DNA of 64,000 nt from Phycisphaeraceae bacterium (lineage in GTDB: Bacteria > Planctomycetota > Phycisphaerae > Phycisphaerales > Phycisphaeraceae). Below the pieces are notes generated by a model, which worked only from the letters and a program-made list of their open reading frames with translations, ran no database searches and had not been told where the DNA came from. Positions 554 through 10,093 of the stretch are shown in pieces (the first letter of the stretch is position 1; every line of letters begins with the position of its first letter). Both the position numbers and the translations under genes were made by a program. The stretch lies in assembly GCA_963674705.1 (NCBI GenBank), contig OY771506.1, positions 736,001-800,000 of the forward strand, read 5' to 3'.

Positions 554-1585
554 TTAAACACGCGCAGCGCGTGTGAACAGGTAATCACGCAAGGCATCGT
601 GGTAATGCGTCGCGGTCGAAACGCGGTGGTAATCGATGCCGCGCGCGGTCAGGTCGTCGTGCCAGTTGTCGCATAATTCTTTGATGCGTGATTCGTAAGA
701 TAGTCGGATGTCCGGGACGTTAAGGCGGACGCGTCTTTCGGTTTCGCTGTCGATAAAGATCGCTTCCTGCATGTCGGGCAGTTGCCATTCATCCTCGTGC
801 AGGATGTGGAAGACGATGGCTTCACCTCCGCGCGAGGTGAATGCGGATAATGCTTTTAAGATCGGATCGCGTCTTTCCAACAGGTCGGAGAAGACGATCA
901 GCAGGCTGCGGCGCGGCAGGCGTTGCGTGAAGTATTTGGCGGAATCGGCGAGGTTGGCGTTGTCGTTTACGCGCACGCGGTGCATGGCTCGCAGCATGTT
1001 GTTGAGCTGTTCGAAACCGCCGCGCGCATCGTGTTCGCGGTGCAGGCCCCTGCGTGCAAATGCGAAGGCGATGTGGTCCTGCTGGCGGATCGTCAGAAAT
1101 CCGATGGCCGCAGCGATCAGGCATGCCTGGTCGTACTTACTGGGGTGTTCGATGATGTGGCTGGTTTTTCGCGTGTCGACTTTCGTGCCCAGCGCTTTGA
1201 GTTTACCCATCCAGGATTGAGCGGGTTTGACGGGTCGTTTGGGGTCGAGGCCGTCGTATGCCATGGAAGCCGAGGCGTCGATGAGCAGGCCGACGGTCAT
1301 GTCGGTCTGGTGTTCGAAGAGTTTGATGAAGAGTCGATCGCTTCTGCCGAAGACTTTCCAGTCGATGTCGCCGACCTCGTCGCCGGGCGCGTATTCGCGG
1401 TAGTCGTTGAACTCGACACAGTGGCCGCGCTGCCGGGAAGTGTGACGGCCGGCGTATCGGCCGCGGATGGGGTGGCGCGGTGCGAAGATGTAGTTGCGCA
1501 GCACCGCCAGGTCCTGCACCTGAAGATACGGGCTGATGTGCGAGGGCTCGGCCGGGCTGTCGGGTTGGACTGTCTGGTCGGGCAT
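554..1585 (-). CDS. DUF58 family protein (MoxR-associated)
   Basis: EFNDYREYAPGDEVGDIDWKVFGRSDRLFIK, IDASASM and SDL motifs; directly downstream of MoxR. Start could be 1585 or 1594. Confidence 0.9.
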   Translation of the reverse strand: MPDQTVQPDSPAEPSHISPYLQVQDLAVLRNYIFAPRHPIRGRYAGRHTSRQRGHCVEFNDYREYAPGDEVGDIDWKVFGRSDRLFIKLFEHQTDMTVGLLIDASASMAYDGLDPKRPVKPAQSWMGKLKALGTKVDTRKTSHIIEHPSKYDQACLIAAAIGFLTIRQQDHIAFAFARRGLHREHDARGGFEQLNNMLRAMHRVRVNDNANLADSAKYFTQRLPRRSLLIVFSDLLERRDPILKALSAFTSRGGEAIVFHILHEDEWQLPDMQEAIFIDSETERRVRLNVPDIRLSYESRIKELCDNWHDDLTARGIDYHRVSTATHYHDALRDYLFTRAARV

Positions 1586-1635
1586 GGGGATCAATTAAGA
1601 ACGAAGTTTGGAAAATTGTAAGAGACAAGAAAAAC

Positions 1636-1672
1636 GGCCCTCACCCCGGCCCTCTCCCGGGGGGAGAGGGAG
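1636..1672 (+). repeat. REP-like palindrome, family A (GGCCCTCACCCCGGCCCTCTCCC..GGGAGAGGG)
   Basis: Hairpin CCCTCTCCC/GGGAGAGGG; further copies at about 47426, 47520, 48464 and 55673. Confidence 0.85.
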
Positions 1673-1695
1673 GAAGACGCTAAGCCGCGAGCGGC

Positions 1696-2721
1696 TTATG
1701 TTGGGGCGGGTTCCTGGTGGGTTACTTCATCGATGATCCGCTGGATGATCTTGTCGGTGGATAGTCCTTCGCCTGCGGCCTGGTAGTTAGGAAGCACGCG
1801 GTGGCGCAGGACCAGCGGCGCGGCCTGGCGGATGTGGCCTTGCGTGACGGTGGGCGAACCGTCGAGCACGGCGAAGGCTTTGCCGGCTAACACCATGTGC
1901 TGACCTGCGCGCGGGCCGGCCCCCCACTGCACGAAGCGCGACGCCCAGTCGCTGCTCGATTCTCTACCCGGGCGCGTCGCGCGCGCCAGCGCCACGGCAT
2001 AACTGACCACGTGCTTACTCACCGGAACACGGCGGACCAGTTGTTGGTACTGCATCATCTGCTGTTTAGTGAATACGGTTTTAAGTTCGATGGGACGCGG
2101 CGCGGTCGTCTCCATAACGATCTGCTCTTCATCATCGACATCCGGGTAATCCATCCACAGGCTGAACATGAAGCGGTCGAGTTGCGCTTCGGGCAGCGGG
2201 TACGTGCCTTCCTGTTCGATGGGGTTCTGCGTGGCGACGACGATGAACGGGCGCTGAAGCTCGTGGCGCTTGCCCATGCTGGTGACTTGCAGTTCCTGCA
2301 TGGCTTCGAGCAGCGCGGATTGTGTCTTGGGCGGCGTGCGGTTGATTTCGTCGGCGAGGATGATGTTGGCGAAGACCGGGCCGGGCACGAAGCGCATGGC
2401 CCGGTTGCCTGATTCATCGTCTTGCAACAGTTCCATGCCGATGATGTCGGCGGGCATCATGTCGGGGGTGAACTGGATTCGGCGGAATTCCCAGCCGAGG
2501 ACTTGTGCGAGTGTTTTGACGAGAAGTGTTTTTGCCAGACCGGGCACGCCGACGAGCAGCGCGTGTCCTTCGCAGAAGGTGGCGGCAAGTAAGGCACGGA
2601 CGGTGTCGTTCTGTCCGATGATGACCTTTGCGACCTGCTCTTCCAAACGTCGGAAACCGTTCGACGCTTCGGAGAGCAGCGCGACATCATCCACGGCTAA
2701 TTCCTTGACCTGATCACTCAC
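1696..2721 (-). CDS. moxR: MoxR family AAA+ ATPase
   Basis: Walker A GVPGLAKT, RIQFTPDMMPAD, LADEINRTPPKTQSALLEAMQE, ATQNPIEQEGTYPLPEAQLDRF. Confidence 0.95.
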   Translation of the reverse strand: MSDQVKELAVDDVALLSEASNGFRRLEEQVAKVIIGQNDTVRALLAATFCEGHALLVGVPGLAKTLLVKTLAQVLGWEFRRIQFTPDMMPADIIGMELLQDDESGNRAMRFVPGPVFANIILADEINRTPPKTQSALLEAMQELQVTSMGKRHELQRPFIVVATQNPIEQEGTYPLPEAQLDRFMFSLWMDYPDVDDEEQIVMETTAPRPIELKTVFTKQQMMQYQQLVRRVPVSKHVVSYAVALARATRPGRESSSDWASRFVQWGAGPRAGQHMVLAGKAFAVLDGSPTVTQGHIRQAAPLVLRHRVLPNYQAAGEGLSTDKIIQRIIDEVTHQEPAPT

Positions 2722-2957: not shown

Positions 2958-4139
2958 TCATTGCGACTGTTGGCTGGATGCCCGGTCCAGCAAGGCTTGC
3001 AGAGCCCCCACATTATCGAGCCGGCCTACAACTGCCGGGGCGCCGGGCACAAAAAGTACGGGCACATAGTCCGCGCCGCTTTCCCCATAAGATAGGACGT
3101 TGCGGCTTATCCGATCTTGCATACGCGGATCGTTATAAGCTTGTTCAAAAGTTTTTTCTCCAAGCCGTCGGATTGCCTCGGCGCGGGCGTTTTTAGCGGT
3201 GCGGGGCTGCACGGGCTCGTACATCCACCGATCAAAATCCGGGTAAGCCCCGGGGTCTGCCAGGAAAAAGGCGACCGCGATCCGGGTCAATTCGCAGCTT
3301 TCCTTGAATCGCTCGTCAATATCGTCCGAGACATGAGGATTGCAGCCGTGATTCAGAGGCATGGGCAGGAGGACGACGGTAAGCCGGCCCGGGTGCTGCT
3401 CTTGATATTCCTCGACGACGCTGTGCGTGTGTCGGCAGTGCAGGCAGGCGTAATCGAGCATCATGACCATGACCTGCTTGCCGTCCGGCGGACCGAGCAG
3501 CGGTTCTTCGCTGAGGTTGAGTGTGAGTTTGCCGTCGAGGACGGTGACGGTGCGGCCAGTGGCGGTTTGTTGATCGCTGCTGTGGGTGTCGAGTGTGATG
3601 AGCATCGAACTTGTGCCCATCTGCACGAGCATCATGGCGAGGACGAGAACGAGACCGAGCACGATCGCGGGGATGCTGCGCAAACGGATGCGCCAGAACA
3701 AAAGAGGCGCGAGTATCAAACCGATCGTGTGATCGGCCATGCAATAGGGGCAGATCGCTCGAAGCGGGATGAGTTGCAGGTAGATAAACCAGATAGCGGA
3801 ACCCGCGATGACGGTGGCGAGCAGTGAGAGCACGAATCTTGCAATGTAATTTGTCTTTTCATTCGCAGAGCGTGAGAAGAACAAGGCGATGATGATGCCG
3901 ATGTAGACGCCCATCGCGAGCAGGCTGACGGGGATGCCCAGACAGTGCGAGAACTTGCTTGATAGGACTTCTGCACATCCGGAACCCGAACCACAACCTG
4001 CGGGGCTCATGCCTTTACTCATCGAGGTGTAGGACAGGTAGGCACTGATGAGTAGCGCGGTAGCCGCCAGACAAATCATGAGGATGAACTCAAAACGAGC
4101 CGGGCCCGGTTTCCGGTAGTCGTCGAAAGGATCATTCAT
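2958..4139 (-). CDS. VKOR (vitamin K epoxide reductase family) fused to a DsbA-like thioredoxin domain
   Basis: VKOR loop cysteines CGSGSGCAEVLSS, TM helices and CPYC; C-terminal DYACLHC CxxC and cis-Pro 'VP' motif. Confidence 0.88.
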   Translation of the reverse strand: MNDPFDDYRKPGPARFEFILMICLAATALLISAYLSYTSMSKGMSPAGCGSGSGCAEVLSSKFSHCLGIPVSLLAMGVYIGIIIALFFSRSANEKTNYIARFVLSLLATVIAGSAIWFIYLQLIPLRAICPYCMADHTIGLILAPLLFWRIRLRSIPAIVLGLVLVLAMMLVQMGTSSMLITLDTHSSDQQTATGRTVTVLDGKLTLNLSEEPLLGPPDGKQVMVMMLDYACLHCRHTHSVVEEYQEQHPGRLTVVLLPMPLNHGCNPHVSDDIDERFKESCELTRIAVAFFLADPGAYPDFDRWMYEPVQPRTAKNARAEAIRRLGEKTFEQAYNDPRMQDRISRNVLSYGESGADYVPVLFVPGAPAVVGRLDNVGALQALLDRASSQQSQ

Positions 4140-4160: not shown

Positions 4161-5261
4161 TTATCGATTGTTGTTCAGCTCGTTGATTTTTTCAGCCAGC
4201 ATGTGTGTGAACACCTCGCGGCCGGCGGGATTCAGGTGCGCGTAATCGGAAAAAGCGTCGTCGGGCATGGCGTCGCGCAGGTCGATGACGAGGATGTTGC
4301 GTCCGACGCTGACTTCATCGATCAACTCGCGGAAGACATCGTTGGATTCGGGCGGCAACCAGCCGCGCAAGCTGGATGACACGGGCAGATTCACAATGAT
4401 GATCTGCTTGGGCCCGAGCGCATCAAGGTCGGCGATGAGGTCGCGGAAGGCGTCGGCGTGGCGTCCGGTGGTTGAATAGCTTTCGGCCTGGAACCAGCCG
4501 AAGCGGGACCAGCCGTTGAACTGGCGTTTGAGGTATTTTTCGGGCCGACGGTCGGGGACGTCCCTGCGTCCCAGCGGGCGCCAGGGGCGGTCTGACGGTT
4601 GGAACAAACCGACCGCGCCGCTGTCGAGTCGTTCATGCAGGGCGAGGCGTGCTTCGAAAAACGCGATGTTGGTGTGGTGGCTGATGTTGCGGCGCTGGTT
4701 GCGGACCCAGTTGTGATCCTTAAGCCAACGGTCCGGCCGCCAACTGTACTCGGAAGGTTCATTCTTTTTCGCTCGATCATCTACCGAGGCTTCCGTTTCG
4801 TCTTCTTCGAGGTCGGCTGCGCCCTGGCCGACAAGCATGGTGGCGTGCAGGCCGAGGATGATGGTGTCGGGTTGGACCTTGCTGGCGGTAAGCGTCTGGG
4901 CGTAGAGCCGGAGCTTGACGAAGCTGCTGCCGAAGCCGTTGATGAGAAGCCAGGGATGACGCGGGACAACTTCTTTTTTCAGCAGCGTCGGGTCGATGCC
5001 TCGGAGGGTGGTGGATTGCCCGAGGACGACGCCGAACGCTTCGGGGCCTTCGTTATGATGATTGCGGGTTTGCAGTTCGACGCCGGCGACGTTTTCGCCG
5101 ATGGTTTGCAACTGGACCCAGGCGATTTTCTTTTCCGGGTCGTTGAACATGGCCGGGTCGCTGCCGAACATGACGTTCAGCAGGATGTTGCAAAAGACGA
5201 ACGCGCACAGCATCCCCCCACTGACGATGAGCAGGCCGTGATATCGTTTGAAGTCAATCAT
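4161..5261 (-). CDS. Membrane-anchored SGNH/DltD-like acyltransferase
   Basis: N-terminal TM anchor, VVLGQST (block I Ser), NGFGSS, C-terminal DYAHLN (DxxH); downstream of an MBOAT gene. Confidence 0.7.
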   Translation of the reverse strand: MIDFKRYHGLLIVSGGMLCAFVFCNILLNVMFGSDPAMFNDPEKKIAWVQLQTIGENVAGVELQTRNHHNEGPEAFGVVLGQSTTLRGIDPTLLKKEVVPRHPWLLINGFGSSFVKLRLYAQTLTASKVQPDTIILGLHATMLVGQGAADLEEDETEASVDDRAKKNEPSEYSWRPDRWLKDHNWVRNQRRNISHHTNIAFFEARLALHERLDSGAVGLFQPSDRPWRPLGRRDVPDRRPEKYLKRQFNGWSRFGWFQAESYSTTGRHADAFRDLIADLDALGPKQIIIVNLPVSSSLRGWLPPESNDVFRELIDEVSVGRNILVIDLRDAMPDDAFSDYAHLNPAGREVFTHMLAEKINELNNNR

Positions 5262-5272
5262 GACCGCGTCGG

Positions 5273-5404
5273 CTAAAAACCCTGATAGAAGAACGTTTCA
5301 CCCGTGCGCGAGAGCCAGTACGCGGCGACGATCATGAGGACGATCTTGATCAGCCGGTATGTCCACTGCCACCAGGTAAGTTTGATGGCTGGGTCATCAC
5401 TCAT
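5273..5404 (-). CDS. 43-aa DltX-like membrane micropeptide
   Basis: MSDDPAIKLTWWQWTYRLIKIVLMIVAAYWLSRTGETFFYQGF*. ATG overlaps the MBOAT TGA (TGATG); one TM helix and a C-terminal FFYQGF motif. Below the ORF-track size cut-off. Confidence 0.85.
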   Translation of the reverse strand: MSDDPAIKLTWWQWTYRLIKIVLMIVAAYWLSRTGETFFYQGF

Positions 5405-6573
5405 CAGAACAACTCCTTCCAGGGGTAGCCGATGATCAGCAAGGAGAACGCGACGTATTCAAAGGTCAGGAACTGAGCGACCAGGCGGTACGTCCACTTC
5501 TGTCGGTAGGCTTTGACGCCCTTGCTGCCCAGTTTTTTTGTCAGCCAGTAGCGGTAGGTATTGGTGATGACCAGGCCCACGGCGTGCATCGCGCCCCAGA
5601 AGAAGAAGGGCCAACTGACGTTGTGCCAGAGCCCGCAGAGCAGAAACGCGACGGTGAAGGCGAAGGTCGCGATGAGCAGCGGGTGTTTGCCGCCGGTCTT
5701 GCGTGCCATGTTCAGTTGCATGGGGATGAACATGTTGCGCCTGATCCACAGGGACAGCGAGATGTGCCAGCGGTCCCAGAAGTCGATCATATTGCGGGCG
5801 ATGTAGGGTTTGTCGAAGTTTTCGGGAGTGTGGATGCCCATGAGTTTGCCGATGCCGACGGCGATGTCGCTGTAGGCGGAGAAGTCGAGGAAGAGCCAGA
5901 TGTAATGCATCTGCACTTCGAAGAGCATGTAAGGACCGGTCACGTAGAAGTCGGTCAGGAATACATGCTGGATCGTGAAGGCGACAACGAACTTCTTGAA
6001 TAGTCCCAATGCGATGCGTTCGATACCTTCCAGCGCCTGGACCGGCGTAAGCGGATCGGGCACGGACGGTTGATCGTAAAAGTCTTCGTAAGACTGGATC
6101 GGCCCGGCGGCGAGCATGTGGAACGGGAGGATGTAGTTGATCGTTGCCACGGGGTTCGGTGAAGGTCGGCCGCCCTGGTAGACGACGCGCCCGACATCGA
6201 AGATACGCAGCATCGCGTACGAATAACCGACCGCCGCCAGGATCGGATTGACCCCGCCCACGCCCAATGCTATCGAGACGTCCGGTCGCTTGTTGAACAC
6301 GAACAACACCAAGGCGATCAGCAAGCCGACGAACATCAACACCAGCCGCCAGGGCTTCGGCTGTGCGAGGATGCGCAAGCCTGACCAGATACATAACACA
6401 CCCGCCAGCACCCACAACACCTGCACGTGCAGTATGAGTGAGATGAACATGATGTTGACCGCGGCGAACACATACTGACGTGCGGTCGCCTTTGTCAGCG
6501 GCGTTAACAGCACGACCGCCAGCAGCATGGTCATCCAGAATTCTTTGGTCGCCAGGTCGATCGTTGGAATCAT
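5404..6573 (-). CDS. MBOAT family O-acyltransferase (DltB/AlgI-like)
   Basis: AGPI, DFSAYSDIAVG, PENFDKPY, FWDRWHISLS and GLWH (catalytic His); multiple TM segments. Confidence 0.93.
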   Translation of the reverse strand: MIPTIDLATKEFWMTMLLAVVLLTPLTKATARQYVFAAVNIMFISLILHVQVLWVLAGVLCIWSGLRILAQPKPWRLVLMFVGLLIALVLFVFNKRPDVSIALGVGGVNPILAAVGYSYAMLRIFDVGRVVYQGGRPSPNPVATINYILPFHMLAAGPIQSYEDFYDQPSVPDPLTPVQALEGIERIALGLFKKFVVAFTIQHVFLTDFYVTGPYMLFEVQMHYIWLFLDFSAYSDIAVGIGKLMGIHTPENFDKPYIARNMIDFWDRWHISLSLWIRRNMFIPMQLNMARKTGGKHPLLIATFAFTVAFLLCGLWHNVSWPFFFWGAMHAVGLVITNTYRYWLTKKLGSKGVKAYRQKWTYRLVAQFLTFEYVAFSLLIIGYPWKELF

Positions 6574-8411
6574 CCGGGGATCGCCTCGGCGGTTTTGATG
6601 TGGGTGACAACGTTCGGCGGGTCGGACAGGTTGAGCGTGTAGACGACTGAGCCGTCCGCGTCCTCGGTTTTCCGCTTAAAGCCGAGTCGGTCGTAGAGGT
6701 CGGCTACGAGCTTGTTCTTCGCGGTAGGGATGAACTCGCCTTCAAGCGTTTTGAATCCGGCTTGCAACGCGCGCTCGAGCAGGATGCTGAACATGAACTG
6801 TTCGGATGTCCTGTTGATGACGCGGCAGCTCATGAGCCAGGTGTCGATACGCAGGGTTTGCTCATCATTCGGCACCGCGATGACGAGGGAGACGAGGCCG
6901 TGATCGCCGAACTTATCGCTTAGCCGAAGCGTCATACCGACCGCGCCTGTTTGGGCGAGCATCGCACGGACATCCTCGGCGGTGTGGCGGCGGGTGGTCA
7001 GGTTGAACTGGTTGGTCTTACCCAGCAGTTGGACGACGCGCTGCATGTCGGTTTCGTCGATGTCGCGCACATCGGCGATCATTTCCAGTGACGCGAGATA
7101 ATCATCGATCGAAGCGAACGACTGTTCGGCATCGCGGCGCTTGCGTTCGACGGCGTATTGCTCAGCCCGCTGACGATCCGCGCCGGAGACTTCGACGGCC
7201 TCGAAGTAGAGCCCCGCTTCCACCGCACGGACGTAACCGGCGGCATCCTCGGGTACTTCGACGACTTCCACTTCGGGCAACACCTGGCGGACGTGTTCGC
7301 GCTCAGCAGGGTTGTCATCAACGAAGACGAAACTATCGAGCCCGAGGCGCAGCGTCTTGGCGATGCGTTCGATGGCCAAGGGTTTGGGGTCCCAGCTTGC
7401 TTCAAACGCGGCGAAGTCGTCGAGCGTGAGGACCATGTCCGGGTGTTTGCCGAACGGTTCACGCGCATCGTCGGGGTTGTTCTTGGAGCAGACGGCCAGG
7501 ACGACGCCGCGCTCGGCTAAACCCTTGGCGTACTTCTGGAAGGAGCGGTAGGCTTCGCCATCCGCGGTTTCACCGACGGAGATGCCGAGTGGGCCGGTCT
7601 CGCCTACTACGCCGCCCCAGAGTGTGTTGTCCAGGTCGAGTACGAGCACCTTCTTCGGGCCGGTCGTCACCGCACGAAGAGCGGCGGCGAGGTGATAGCT
7701 CAGTAACGAAGTGCCTTCTTCGCTGAACGGCTGCTTGGTCCAGTGGTATCGGCGAGCATCGTAAAATTGATCACGGCCCATCTGCCCGGCGACGCGCTGA
7801 AGGTCGACGAAGTACGCGCCTTTGGGCAATGCTTCACGCAGGGCGCGGTCCATCGCACGCATCAGGCCCGTGGGCCCTTCGGGTTCGCCCGAGAGGTTGA
7901 CGCCAAACGGACCCGCATCGATACAGTCGTAACCGACCTGGATGATGCGGGCCTTGAGTTGATTGGCTGCGATCTGCCAGGCTTGTTGCCAAAAGGCTAA
8001 TTCGTCGGCAACGCGATCGGTGGGGCTGCGGTCTGCGCCGCTAAGTAATCGTTGATGCCAGGGGACGAAGACGACGGTGTCGATGCGCTCGCCCGAGGAG
8101 GCGGCGGTCAGCAGTTCCTGCATGACGTTGTCGTATTCGCCGTCGATGACGTAGGCGGACATACCCCGGCCGAGGGCTTGTGCGGCCAGGCCGTTAGCGA
8201 GCCAGGTGGTTGTGCATTGGCCGACCATCAGGACGCGGTGGACGTCGCTATTGTCTTTGAATTGTTTTTCGATGTAGCGGCCGGCCTTGTCGATCTCTTC
8301 GCCGGTGAATCCGCCAAGACGCAGCGCGGCGCGCAGCAGCTCAATGCCCTCATCGGCCTTGCCTGCTTTGCGGAGTTTCACGGCCTGCTTGATCTGGTCG
8401 GCTGGATTCAT
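6570..8411 (-). CDS. FkbH-like HAD-IIIC glyceryl-ACP-forming enzyme with C-terminal GNAT-like domain
   Basis: KVLVLDLDNTLWGGVVGE, CSKNN, FVDDNPAE, KTNQFNLTTRR and LMSCRV (acyl-accepting Cys). Confidence 0.92.
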   Translation of the reverse strand: MNPADQIKQAVKLRKAGKADEGIELLRAALRLGGFTGEEIDKAGRYIEKQFKDNSDVHRVLMVGQCTTTWLANGLAAQALGRGMSAYVIDGEYDNVMQELLTAASSGERIDTVVFVPWHQRLLSGADRSPTDRVADELAFWQQAWQIAANQLKARIIQVGYDCIDAGPFGVNLSGEPEGPTGLMRAMDRALREALPKGAYFVDLQRVAGQMGRDQFYDARRYHWTKQPFSEEGTSLLSYHLAAALRAVTTGPKKVLVLDLDNTLWGGVVGETGPLGISVGETADGEAYRSFQKYAKGLAERGVVLAVCSKNNPDDAREPFGKHPDMVLTLDDFAAFEASWDPKPLAIERIAKTLRLGLDSFVFVDDNPAEREHVRQVLPEVEVVEVPEDAAGYVRAVEAGLYFEAVEVSGADRQRAEQYAVERKRRDAEQSFASIDDYLASLEMIADVRDIDETDMQRVVQLLGKTNQFNLTTRRHTAEDVRAMLAQTGAVGMTLRLSDKFGDHGLVSLVIAVPNDEQTLRIDTWLMSCRVINRTSEQFMFSILLERALQAGFKTLEGEFIPTAKNKLVADLYDRLGFKRKTEDADGSVVYTLNLSDPPNVVTHIKTAEAIPG

Positions 8412-8428
8412 GCTTGTCTACTTACCGT

Positions 8429-9379
8429 TTACTTTTCAGAAGGAACGCAGACGTAGGCCACGTCGATCGACGGGTCCTGCTTGTTCTTGCCGTAGTCGGC
8501 GACGCGGAAAGATTTTTCGGCGACGATGTCGAAGCCCGCCTCTTTGAGCATGTCGTTGACCTGATGGCACTCGGTGAAGAGGTACAGGTGATCGATGGCG
8601 TTGGAGTTCACGACGGTCGTGGCGAACATCGGTGCGCCGGGCTTGAGGCAGCGGCACAGTTCTTTCAATGAGAACAGCGGGTCGGGCACGTGCTCGATGA
8701 TTTCGGCGAAGACGCCCCAACTCAGGGTGTTGTCTTCGTAGGGCCAGCGGACGCGTGCGTCGCCGGAGCCGAGGGTGTAGCGGTCTTTGGCGATACCGGC
8801 TTCAGCGAGCAGCTTGCCGGCGTATTCGATAGAGAATCGGCTGACGTCCAGGCTGTTGGTGCTGGTGCCGGGTTTGGCTTCGAGGATGTTCAGCAGGTAC
8901 AGGCCGTGCCCGAACCCGAACTCGCAGCCGACGCCTGAATCCGGGACGCGGGACAGGAACGCTTCGGTGAAGAAGTGGTGGATATCGAAGTGGATGGGCC
9001 AGTAGGCGTGGGTGAGCATGAGCCCTTCGAGGTAGAACTTACCCATCACGTCAGGGTTGTCGTAGACCTCTTTATAAACATCTTCGAAGTCGCTGTGGCT
9101 GTATTCCTGTGTCTGCATGAAGCGCGCCTGCTCTTTGAGGTAGGCGTAGGTGTATTCGATGAGTGAATCCATCGGCGAGCCGCCCATACGCTGGGCGAGG
9201 TCGACGAGGTGTTCGGCCTGCTGCCAGAAGGCGTCGCCGTGGGTATTGATCTGGTGTTCGGCGTGCGGGGCGAGGAGGTTGCGTGCTTTTTCCAGCAGGT
9301 CCTGTGTGAAGCGGGCGGCGATGGGGTACTTGGCCGCGGCGGATTCGATCGCTGATTGCACGTCGGTTACATGTGTCAT
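8429..9379 (-). CDS. Class I SAM-dependent methyltransferase
   Basis: Motif I CEFGFGHG, acidic SLDVS, EIIEHVPDP..LKPG. Confidence 0.85.
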   Translation of the reverse strand: MTHVTDVQSAIESAAAKYPIAARFTQDLLEKARNLLAPHAEHQINTHGDAFWQQAEHLVDLAQRMGGSPMDSLIEYTYAYLKEQARFMQTQEYSHSDFEDVYKEVYDNPDVMGKFYLEGLMLTHAYWPIHFDIHHFFTEAFLSRVPDSGVGCEFGFGHGLYLLNILEAKPGTSTNSLDVSRFSIEYAGKLLAEAGIAKDRYTLGSGDARVRWPYEDNTLSWGVFAEIIEHVPDPLFSLKELCRCLKPGAPMFATTVVNSNAIDHLYLFTECHQVNDMLKEAGFDIVAEKSFRVADYGKNKQDPSIDVAYVCVPSEK

Positions 9380-9413
9380 GCGTCTTACTCGTTAGATATC
9401 AGGTTCGTTTTAT

Positions 9414-9806
9414 TCAGGAAACGTTCTGCACCAACTCCACGGTAACACCCCGCGTGTAGATCGGGGAGATGAAGTTGATCAGCAGTGGGCCGGCGTCGAC
9501 GGGTTCGGATTCGAGGAGCTCAACCCCCTGCTCGTTTAACTGTTTGGCTGCCAGCACGATGTCGTCGACTTCAAACGCGACGTGGTGCAGGCCCCCCATC
9601 CCTTTATTGAATTTGGCAAGCACGCCGCCTCGCGGCACGACAAATTCGATCAGACCTCTCGGCCCTTGGGTGAAGATGCATTCCGCCTCATACGCGGGGA
9701 CGAACTGGCGCCGGCCCATCTCCAGGCCGAACAGATCGACCCACATCGTGACCAGCGACTCATCAGGGACGACGATGCCCACGTGATGCAATGCGGGATT
9801 GTTCAC
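9414..9806 (-). CDS. VOC family protein, methylmalonyl-CoA epimerase-like
   Basis: LHHVGIVV, IEFVVP, GLHHVAFEVDDI and C-terminal VELVQ metal-ligand pattern. Confidence 0.82.
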   Translation of the reverse strand: MNNPALHHVGIVVPDESLVTMWVDLFGLEMGRRQFVPAYEAECIFTQGPRGLIEFVVPRGGVLAKFNKGMGGLHHVAFEVDDIVLAAKQLNEQGVELLESEPVDAGPLLINFISPIYTRGVTVELVQNVS

Positions 9807-9850
9807 CTACCGGCACTCCTTGCCTTGGTCGCGATCCATCCATGCCCTTT

Positions 9851-10093
9851 TCAGGCCTTGGCCAGGTGCGCATCCACCAGCGACGCCAGTTCGCCGACGT
9901 CCTTGAGGCTGGCGACTTCAGTCCCGGTGAACCGCACGCCGAAGCGTTTTTCCACCGCCAGGATCAGGTTGACGTGCATCAGCGAGTCCCATTCGTCGAT
10001 GTCTTTGGCGGATGTGGAGCTTTCGATCTCCAGTTCATCATCGTCGAAGACCTCCTGGAAGACCTCGCTTAGCTGTTCTAATGTCTGACTCAC
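9851..10093 (-). CDS. Acyl carrier protein (80 aa)
   Basis: GTG start at 10093; acidic sequence with WDSLMH phosphopantetheine site. The track ORF is over-extended into xth. Confidence 0.9.
   Translation of the reverse strand: MSQTLEQLSEVFQEVFDDDELEIESSTSAKDIDEWDSLMHVNLILAVEKRFGVRFTGTEVASLKDVGELASLVDAHLAKA

Follow-up and report, generated by a model that had tools for sequence, protein, structure and literature searches.

The window that we analyzed is a 64,000-nucleotide stretch of contig OY771506.1 (positions 736,001 to 800,000; assembly GCA_963674705.1) from a Phycisphaeraceae bacterium, and it contains a cassette of seven adjacent minus-strand genes that may comprise a Dlt-style acylation relay loaded by an FkbH-family enzyme. 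The first gene (9851-10093) encodes a stand-alone acyl carrier protein (ACP) of 80 amino acids (aa), which matches PF00550 (E 2e-6) and features Ser37, the predicted phosphopantetheine site, within a DSL motif. The next gene (9414-9806) encodes an accessory VOC protein that is most like methylmalonyl-CoA epimerase (TIGR03081, E 2e-16, under the cut-off) and is a predicted C2 epimerase of the carrier-bound acyl group. It is followed by a class I S-adenosylmethionine (SAM)-dependent methyltransferase with an N-terminal helical domain (8429-9379), which is predicted to O-methylate glyceryl-ACP, and by a 613-aa FkbH-family glyceryl transferase/phosphatase with an FkbH_N domain (6570-8411), which scores 294.6 bits against TIGR01686 (cut-off 146.65). 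The remaining genes encode a short MBOAT of 389 aa (5404-6573; PF03062) that lacks a C-terminal shuttle motif, a 43-aa membrane microprotein (5273-5404) that ends in FFYQGF with Tyr40 as the predicted acyl shuttle, and a membrane-anchored SGNH protein of 366 aa (4161-5261) with a transmembrane segment at residues 10-28, which is the predicted final acyltransferase. An earlier interpretation made from the letters alone, hereafter the sequence-only reading, had described this seven-gene locus, and we confirm that the genes are real and that their catalytic motifs are kept.

The sole loader within the cassette is FkbH, which is encoded by a single copy in the genome and matches PDB entry 3slr (E 2.5e-48). 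Its HAD motifs are present (D259-x-D261, CSKN at 308 and DD at 365), and Cys529 lies within an MSCRV stretch, the SCR portion of which was found in 53/53 FkbH frames longer than 500 aa from the fetched loci; we take this C-terminal cysteine to be the glyceryl-enzyme site. According to the available part of PMC7489565, FkbH uses 1,3-bisphosphoglycerate (1,3-BPG) to form glyceryl-ACP. The genome encodes GAPDH, as a source of 1,3-BPG, and one phosphopantetheinyl transferase. The ACP scored only 17.5 bits against the DltC model (cut-off 68), which together with the PF00550 match and Ser37 suggests that the carrier is an ACP rather than DltC. DltA was absent from the locus, and its best match in the genome, which is 96.6% complete, reached 178.5 bits against a cut-off of 559.85. 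The proposal that FkbH stands in place of DltA is therefore supported. The sequence-only reading had also stated that polyketide synthase (PKS) or nonribosomal peptide synthetase (NRPS) genes and acyl-ACP dehydrogenases are missing. For the synthases this holds across the genome, which contains no NRPS condensation domain and only four ketosynthase matches, all within frames of 430-480 aa, with no long or modular ketosynthase frame; for the acyl-ACP dehydrogenase pair, which was searched at the locus only, it holds at the locus, where a FabH-like enzyme and PKS/NRPS genes are likewise absent.

The MBOAT matched the DltB structure 6bug (E 5e-31) in an alignment that sets His317 against the WH motif, and both His317 and His270 were invariant in 118 rows. 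However, its score against the DltB model TIGR04091 was 179.6, under the cut-off of 375. In a quick tree of 59 rows with long branches, the window's MBOAT fell within a 19-row set (support 96) that comprises 16 FkbH-linked members, two linked to AMP-binding enzymes and one without a loader, whereas the only three DltB rows formed their own branch (support 100) with the window's protein outside. By these sequence comparisons, the MBOAT belongs to a separate clade rather than being orthologous to DltB. Its profile matches at least 705 clustered proteins at E 1e-60; of the 120 matches listed, 119 are 375-417 aa long, and the automatic names are DltB or AlgI. The genome's other MBOAT (G000:C1:2238612-2240192; L029:6613-8193) is a long form that ends in FIYFQF, a fused motif, and it is followed by a 309-aa gene without a Pfam match, with which it probably forms an ordinary acetylation pair.

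The C-terminus of the 43-aa peptide fits the F-x-Y-x-x-F acyl shuttle that the available text of PMC12148441 describes for DltX and PatA. Eight frames in the whole genome end in this motif, and a hydrophobic segment precedes it in only two, namely the 43-aa peptide, in which the segment spans residues 18-32, and the tail of the separate long MBOAT. Residues F38, Y40 and F43 of the peptide were invariant across 15 loci. Among 10 related loci, which are kin rather than independent samples, mismatches at the three codon positions numbered 318/194/646, and the motif codons showed 132 synonymous and 0 non-synonymous differences. Judging from such patterns, the peptide is a real gene under selection. 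It aligned to one DltX sequence (E 9e-5), and the DltX Pfam model did not match it at E 0.1. A model of the MBOAT-peptide complex scored 0.68, compared with 0.00 for the best control, with contact agreement of at least 83% between runs and a partner pLDDT of at least 71; the mark that it passed was reached by 116/157 solved pairs and 2/215 mismatched pairs. The confident interface sets the peptide helix against MBOAT residues 176-200, and the model supports binding of the peptide to the MBOAT.

We also found that the shuttle motif is complementary between proteins, in that sequence comparison places it either in a separate peptide or fused to the tail of a long MBOAT. Separate motif peptides accompany MBOATs without a tail motif at the 15 loci above and at 10 more, and long MBOATs with their own tail motif occur in the FkbH cassettes L075, L100, L102, L103 and L216. 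At L107 and L127, no separate peptide was identified. Each form is spread across the MBOAT tree, which suggests that the split arrangement is not peculiar to DltB. At L115, L122, L148 and L168, a short MBOAT is accompanied by a separate F-x-Y-x-x-F peptide, with no FkbH within the sampled DNA, and DltX-like microproteins seem, from their sequences, to be widespread beyond FkbH cassettes.

The protein encoded at 4161-5261 passed the check for an SGNH fold, with an intact triad of Ser83, Asp339 and His342. The sequence-only reading had presented it as the counterpart of DltD, and in this respect the fold and triad stand, but its likeness to DltD is supported only as far as the common fold: the SGNH profile did not match DltD, for which one sequence was compared. 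In the top language-model cluster, 20% of members carry a DltD label, which is a lead only. The genome contains a second SGNH copy that is 47% identical and keeps the triad (G000:C1:3131156-3132241; L028:8157-9242), and no MBOAT or peptide gene accompanies this copy, which follows a PilM gene cluster and lies near a prepilin-type gene. Among 41 genomes searched, two SGNH copies were found only in the window's genome and in G004. The second copy may draw on the same acyl-peptide donor and serve a different acceptor.

The predicted co-occurrence of FkbH, ACP, MBOAT and SGNH genes elsewhere was borne out across the genus and in other phyla. The cassette is present in 9/10 same-genus genomes, and eight of the 10 encode an MBOAT that is 63-96% identical; the ninth, G005, carries the ACP, VOC, methyltransferase and FkbH genes together with the beginning of the MBOAT gene, at the end of a contig. 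In G003, which is 94% complete, none of the cassette was found. The close MBOAT clade was absent from 26 genomes of the same family outside the genus, in which only 32-37% matches were detected. At E 1e-75, the clade was found in 2/401 Planctomycetota genomes, including that of the window, and at E 1e-55 it was found in 9/301 genomes of the phylum of G354 and 7/301 of the phylum of G353, the records of which are titled Polyangiaceae and Acidobacteria, respectively. Beyond the genus, the cassette is thus sporadic in Planctomycetota, Acidobacteriota and Myxococcota, and its closest named relatives are from Phycisphaeraceae, Acidobacteria and Polyangiaceae, not Gram-positives.

Among 23 loci with an MBOAT at least 40% identical, a count that leaves out five loci repeating DNA already counted and in which L110 and L112 look like one sequence, FkbH was present in 19, ACP in 17, the methyltransferase in 15, VOC in five and an AMP-binding enzyme in none. 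Most of the ACP misses lie at contig ends, as do two of the four FkbH misses (L025 and L106 start at a contig end); the others are L110/L112. In 14 loci from two other phyla that were chosen by MBOAT alone, FkbH and ACP were present together in 11 and AMP-binding enzymes in three. Even where gene order and strand are shuffled, at L035 and L036, the gene set stays together. FkbH was found in two of 72 more distant metagenome MBOAT loci, many of which are short contigs.

In every complete locus of the genus, the methyltransferase gene lies between those for ACP and FkbH, and its product has no transmembrane segment and no close solved relative. Because this enzyme is a near-constant member of the cassette, the acyl group is more likely to be O-methylated than plain glyceryl, which refines the earlier proposal of a glyceryl unit that is "possibly modified". 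The VOC gene was found in 2/10 other genomes of the genus and is fused to a methyltransferase gene in P0159. Its product scored 60.6 bits against TIGR03081 (curated threshold 114.95), with 1jc4 as the best PDB match (E 2e-9), and contains residues H8, E54, H75 and E124, which are invariant in 11 sequences and are candidate metal ligands, a role that we assume from the VOC family. The window's methyltransferase subtype occurs with VOC in 6/6 cases, and the other subtype occurs without VOC in 11/11. The correspondence between methyltransferase subtype and VOC presence suggests a stereochemical switch.

Other cassettes differ in their tailoring genes. At L075, L095, L127, L208 and L214, the FkbH-MBOAT cassette includes a MaoC dehydratase, in some cases together with an SDR, and B12-binding radical SAM genes were present at L208 as well as at L124. 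These cassettes suggest a range of C3 units. L100 and L102 contain a VOC gene and no methyltransferase. At L075, two FkbH-ACP-methyltransferase sets face each other within one polysaccharide cluster, one of which includes VOC and an acyltransferase of the AAC(3) family, and the other MaoC, SDR and MBOAT.

With regard to the acceptor, glycosyltransferase, flippase, Wzy/ligase or capsule-export neighbors were observed at no fewer than nine of the 25 FkbH- and MBOAT-containing loci outside the genus (at least L036, L075, L100, L116, L204, L205, L206, L215 and L217), a count that has no background control and covers the neighboring open reading frames that were scanned (81/140 in one locus set). 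L205 lies inside a Wzx/Wzc/Wzy cluster, and L100 adjoins capsule export genes. The latter locus (L100:4784-10665), on Sinorhizobium meliloti pSymB, lies upstream of the rkp genes for capsule export and comprises VOC, a long MBOAT ending in FLYQGF, ACP and FkbH; a 409-aa gene labelled 'TonB-dependent receptor' occupies the expected SGNH position. In the window's genome, the teichoic-acid polymerase family PF04464 had no match, and the one Wzx-family profile tested returned one match. The position of the second SGNH copy behind the PilM cluster leaves room for a glycoprotein acceptor.

Immediately downstream of the cassette, at a distance of 21 bp, lies a VKOR-thioredoxin fusion gene (window 2958-4139), which is followed by genes for a MoxR AAA ATPase and a DUF58 protein (window 554-2721). 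This order is kept in several genomes and is limited to the window's genus; in G004, a two-frame transposase-like insertion that is absent from the window separates the VKOR and MoxR genes (L020:3111-4108). A promoter scan returned two sites, compared with 2.8 expected.

Taken together, our favored explanation, which we hold with modest confidence, is a Dlt-style relay that is loaded by FkbH and places an O-methylated glyceryl ester on a cell-surface glycan. The proposal of a Dlt-like relay with an FkbH donor is supported by fold and co-occurrence, but the MBOAT lies in its own clade rather than with DltB. Based on family chemistry and the motifs present, FkbH would transfer glycerate from 1,3-BPG onto the ACP. 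Next, the VOC protein would convert the D to the L configuration at C2, and O-methylation of the carrier-bound unit would fall to the methyltransferase; this is the least certain step. By analogy with DltB/DltX and PatA, and with binding supported by the complex model, the short MBOAT would use His317 to take the acyl group off the ACP and hand it to Tyr40 at the peptide's outer C-terminus; that this ACP feeds this MBOAT is a pairing that we infer. Ser83 of the SGNH protein would then accept the acyl group and pass it, as an ester, to a polysaccharide of the periplasm or cell surface whose synthesis is encoded elsewhere. Our confidence differs among these elements. Passage of an FkbH-derived C3 unit through the MBOAT, tyrosine and SGNH protein is quite likely, and the acceptor is probably a polysaccharide. 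We lean slightly toward O-methylation of the C3 unit, and the assignment of VOC as a C2 epimerase is tentative, falling a little short of one that we would favor.

Several observations weigh against this explanation, in addition to the DltD comparison above. From the methyltransferase fold, O-methylation is indistinguishable from C- or N-methylation, and the enzyme's top 50 matches include no PKS O-methyltransferase. The C2 of a glyceryl-thioester is less activated than that of methylmalonyl-CoA, which weakens the epimerase reading of VOC. Tyr40 lies outside the confident contacts of the complex model, so that the model does not place it at His317, and the passing score may be due to resemblance to known complexes. 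No glycan gene was found near the cassette in the window's genome or genus, and 16/25 loci outside the genus had no clear glycan neighbor among the scanned frames. L110/L112 comprises ACP, a short MBOAT (44%), peptide and SGNH genes with no FkbH or adenylation loader within 8 kb, and the short MBOATs of L114, L118 and L209-L211 adjoin AMP-binding enzymes instead of FkbH, which suggests that the chassis is not FkbH-specific. L118 also encodes an ACP, peptide, SGNH protein and formyltransferase; this set resembles Dlt, and its cargo may be an N-formyl amino acid. Furthermore, an MBOAT was present in only 5/32 Planctomycetota FkbH loci (one 2.6-kb contig left out) and in three of the six plasmid FkbH records opened, of 88, which suggests that the MBOAT cassette is one of several uses of FkbH.

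We weighed this FkbH-loaded, O-methylglyceryl relay against four alternatives. The same relay could carry another acyl group, such as plain glyceryl or a C-methylated or otherwise rearranged C3 or C4 unit, in which case the acceptor sugar may be the substrate of the methyltransferase, and VOC may be an isomerase or repair enzyme. We consider this unlikely, although the swapping of tailoring enzymes among related cassettes (MaoC with or without SDR), the presence of VOC without a methyltransferase at L100 and L102, the lack of a close solved relative for the methyltransferase and the score of VOC under the epimerase cut-off all speak for it. Opposed to these points are the lack of a transmembrane segment in the methyltransferase and its fixed position between ACP and FkbH in the genus, and the tracking of its subtype with VOC, which is expected if one tethered substrate serves both enzymes. 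Alternatively, the acceptor of the relay could be a lipoprotein, a glycolipid or the glycan of a glycoprotein such as a pilin, and not a polysaccharide. Polysaccharide genes are not nearby, the genome has the single Wzx-family match, the second SGNH copy stands alone behind the PilM cluster, G004 also has a second SGNH copy, and L116 adjoins two PMT-type glycosyltransferase genes. However, the best-resolved neighborhoods are Wzx/Wzy polysaccharide or capsule clusters (L075, L100, L205, L206 and L217), and the MBOAT-SGNH pairs named in the accessible text of PMC12148441 act on polymers, so that we regard a non-polysaccharide acceptor as distinctly improbable.

We assign a very low probability to tailoring of a secreted small molecule, as in suomilide-type clusters. 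The bsl cluster does combine FkbH with an O-methyltransferase and an MBOAT, but there, in the available description (PMC13122637), FkbH serves as a loading domain of an NRPS, and acylation of a hexose by the MBOAT is a separate event. In addition, neither a condensation domain nor a modular ketosynthase match was found in the genome, and an envelope polymer is the target suggested by the shuttle peptide and the anchored SGNH protein. The possibility of a displaced dlt operon that moves D-alanine, with FkbH as an unrelated passenger, draws on the automatic DltB names and on DltB being the only solved sequence relative of the MBOAT. It is scarcely credible given that DltA and DltB models are under their cut-offs, PF04464 has no match, the three DltB sequences branch apart and FkbH accompanies the MBOAT across phyla.

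A broader extension of the FkbH-loaded relay is conceivable, and taken as a whole we regard it as rather doubtful. The carrier, MBOAT, microprotein and SGNH protein could form a general plug-in export chassis of diderms, not special to Dlt, that installs a family of C3 esters on surface glycans. Either FkbH or an adenylation enzyme could then serve as the loader, and the tailoring enzymes (a methyltransferase, epimerase, dehydratase or reductase) would likewise be exchangeable. As part of this extension, VOC paired with a stereo-matched methyltransferase would yield an O-methyl-L-glyceryl ester, the methyltransferase of sister species would yield the D form, and such cassettes would be the missing source of known polysaccharide glyceryl esters. 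The L-glyceryl group of gellan is a known glyceryl ester on a bacterial polysaccharide. If the relay is as we propose, the tyrosine-shuttle mechanism gains a third donor class, glyceryl-ACP from glycolysis, and an uncharacterized surface modification is predicted in several phyla, with a genetic handle on polysaccharide glyceryl esters. Our analysis also flags an easily missed class of genes of about 40 aa and MBOATs that are automatically named DltB or AlgI, and the fused-motif version adjoins capsule export genes on pSymB of S. meliloti, which is a tractable organism.

Full-text literature searches, the coverage of which excluded most subscription papers, one key Dlt mechanism paper and supplements, returned no description of an FkbH-ACP-MBOAT-SGNH relay. 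Known FkbH glyceryl-ACP systems (tetronate, methoxymalonyl-ACP and suomilide/aeruginosin) share with the cassette FkbH, a stand-alone ACP and a methyltransferase, and an FkbH step followed by O-methylation is described in one of the sources (PMC7489565 and PMC13122637, the latter for the methylation; both as available in part). Unlike those systems, the cassette locus has no dehydrogenase pair, FabH-like enzyme or PKS/NRPS, and its predicted destination is a membrane relay. In Campylobacter jejuni, the dimethylglyceric-acid modification is on a nonulosonic sugar and is presumably added in the cytoplasm. There, fkbH cj1302 adjoins the annotated epimerase gene cj1301, and the flagellar glycan of the strain carries dimethylglyceric acid, which resembles the cassette in the pairing of FkbH with an epimerase-annotated gene and in the methylated glycerate, here on glycan pseudaminic acid (PMC7099621, available portion). 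We infer that cj1301 and cj1302 are linked to this substituent, an assignment that the source itself does not make, and its available portion mentions no MBOAT, shuttle peptide or SGNH protein.

The residues of the broad MBOAT-SGNH tyrosine relay are all present in the cassette (His317, Tyr40 and Ser83/Asp339/His342), consistent with the transfer from MBOAT histidine to tyrosine to SGNH serine outlined in the consulted part of PMC12148441. PatA/PatB and the acetyl-CoA MBOAT-SGNH pairs for alginate, cellulose and secondary wall polymers likewise feature the MBOAT histidine, tyrosine hexapeptide and SGNH serine, but use an acyl-CoA donor and a motif fused to the MBOAT, whereas the cassette has a carrier and a microprotein. 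According to that same 2025 source, so far as its text was available, non-Dlt MBOAT-SGNH pathways have neither a carrier protein nor a DltX-like microprotein; in contrast, we find both outside Dlt and outside Gram-positives, with a different loader. With Dlt itself, which attaches D-alanine to teichoic acids, the cassette shares, as described there, a carrier, a short MBOAT without a C-terminal motif, a separate F-x-Y-x-x-F microprotein and a membrane-anchored SGNH protein. It differs in having FkbH rather than the adenylation enzyme DltA, an added methyltransferase and VOC, an MBOAT from a separate clade, an SGNH protein whose profile did not match the one DltD sequence compared, and hosts outside the Gram-positives, with no PF04464 match in the genome examined. 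Although it stands outside Dlt with respect to DltA and DltB orthology, the cassette by its sequence features would work like Dlt, in an arrangement previously reported only for D-alanine in the walls of Gram-positives.

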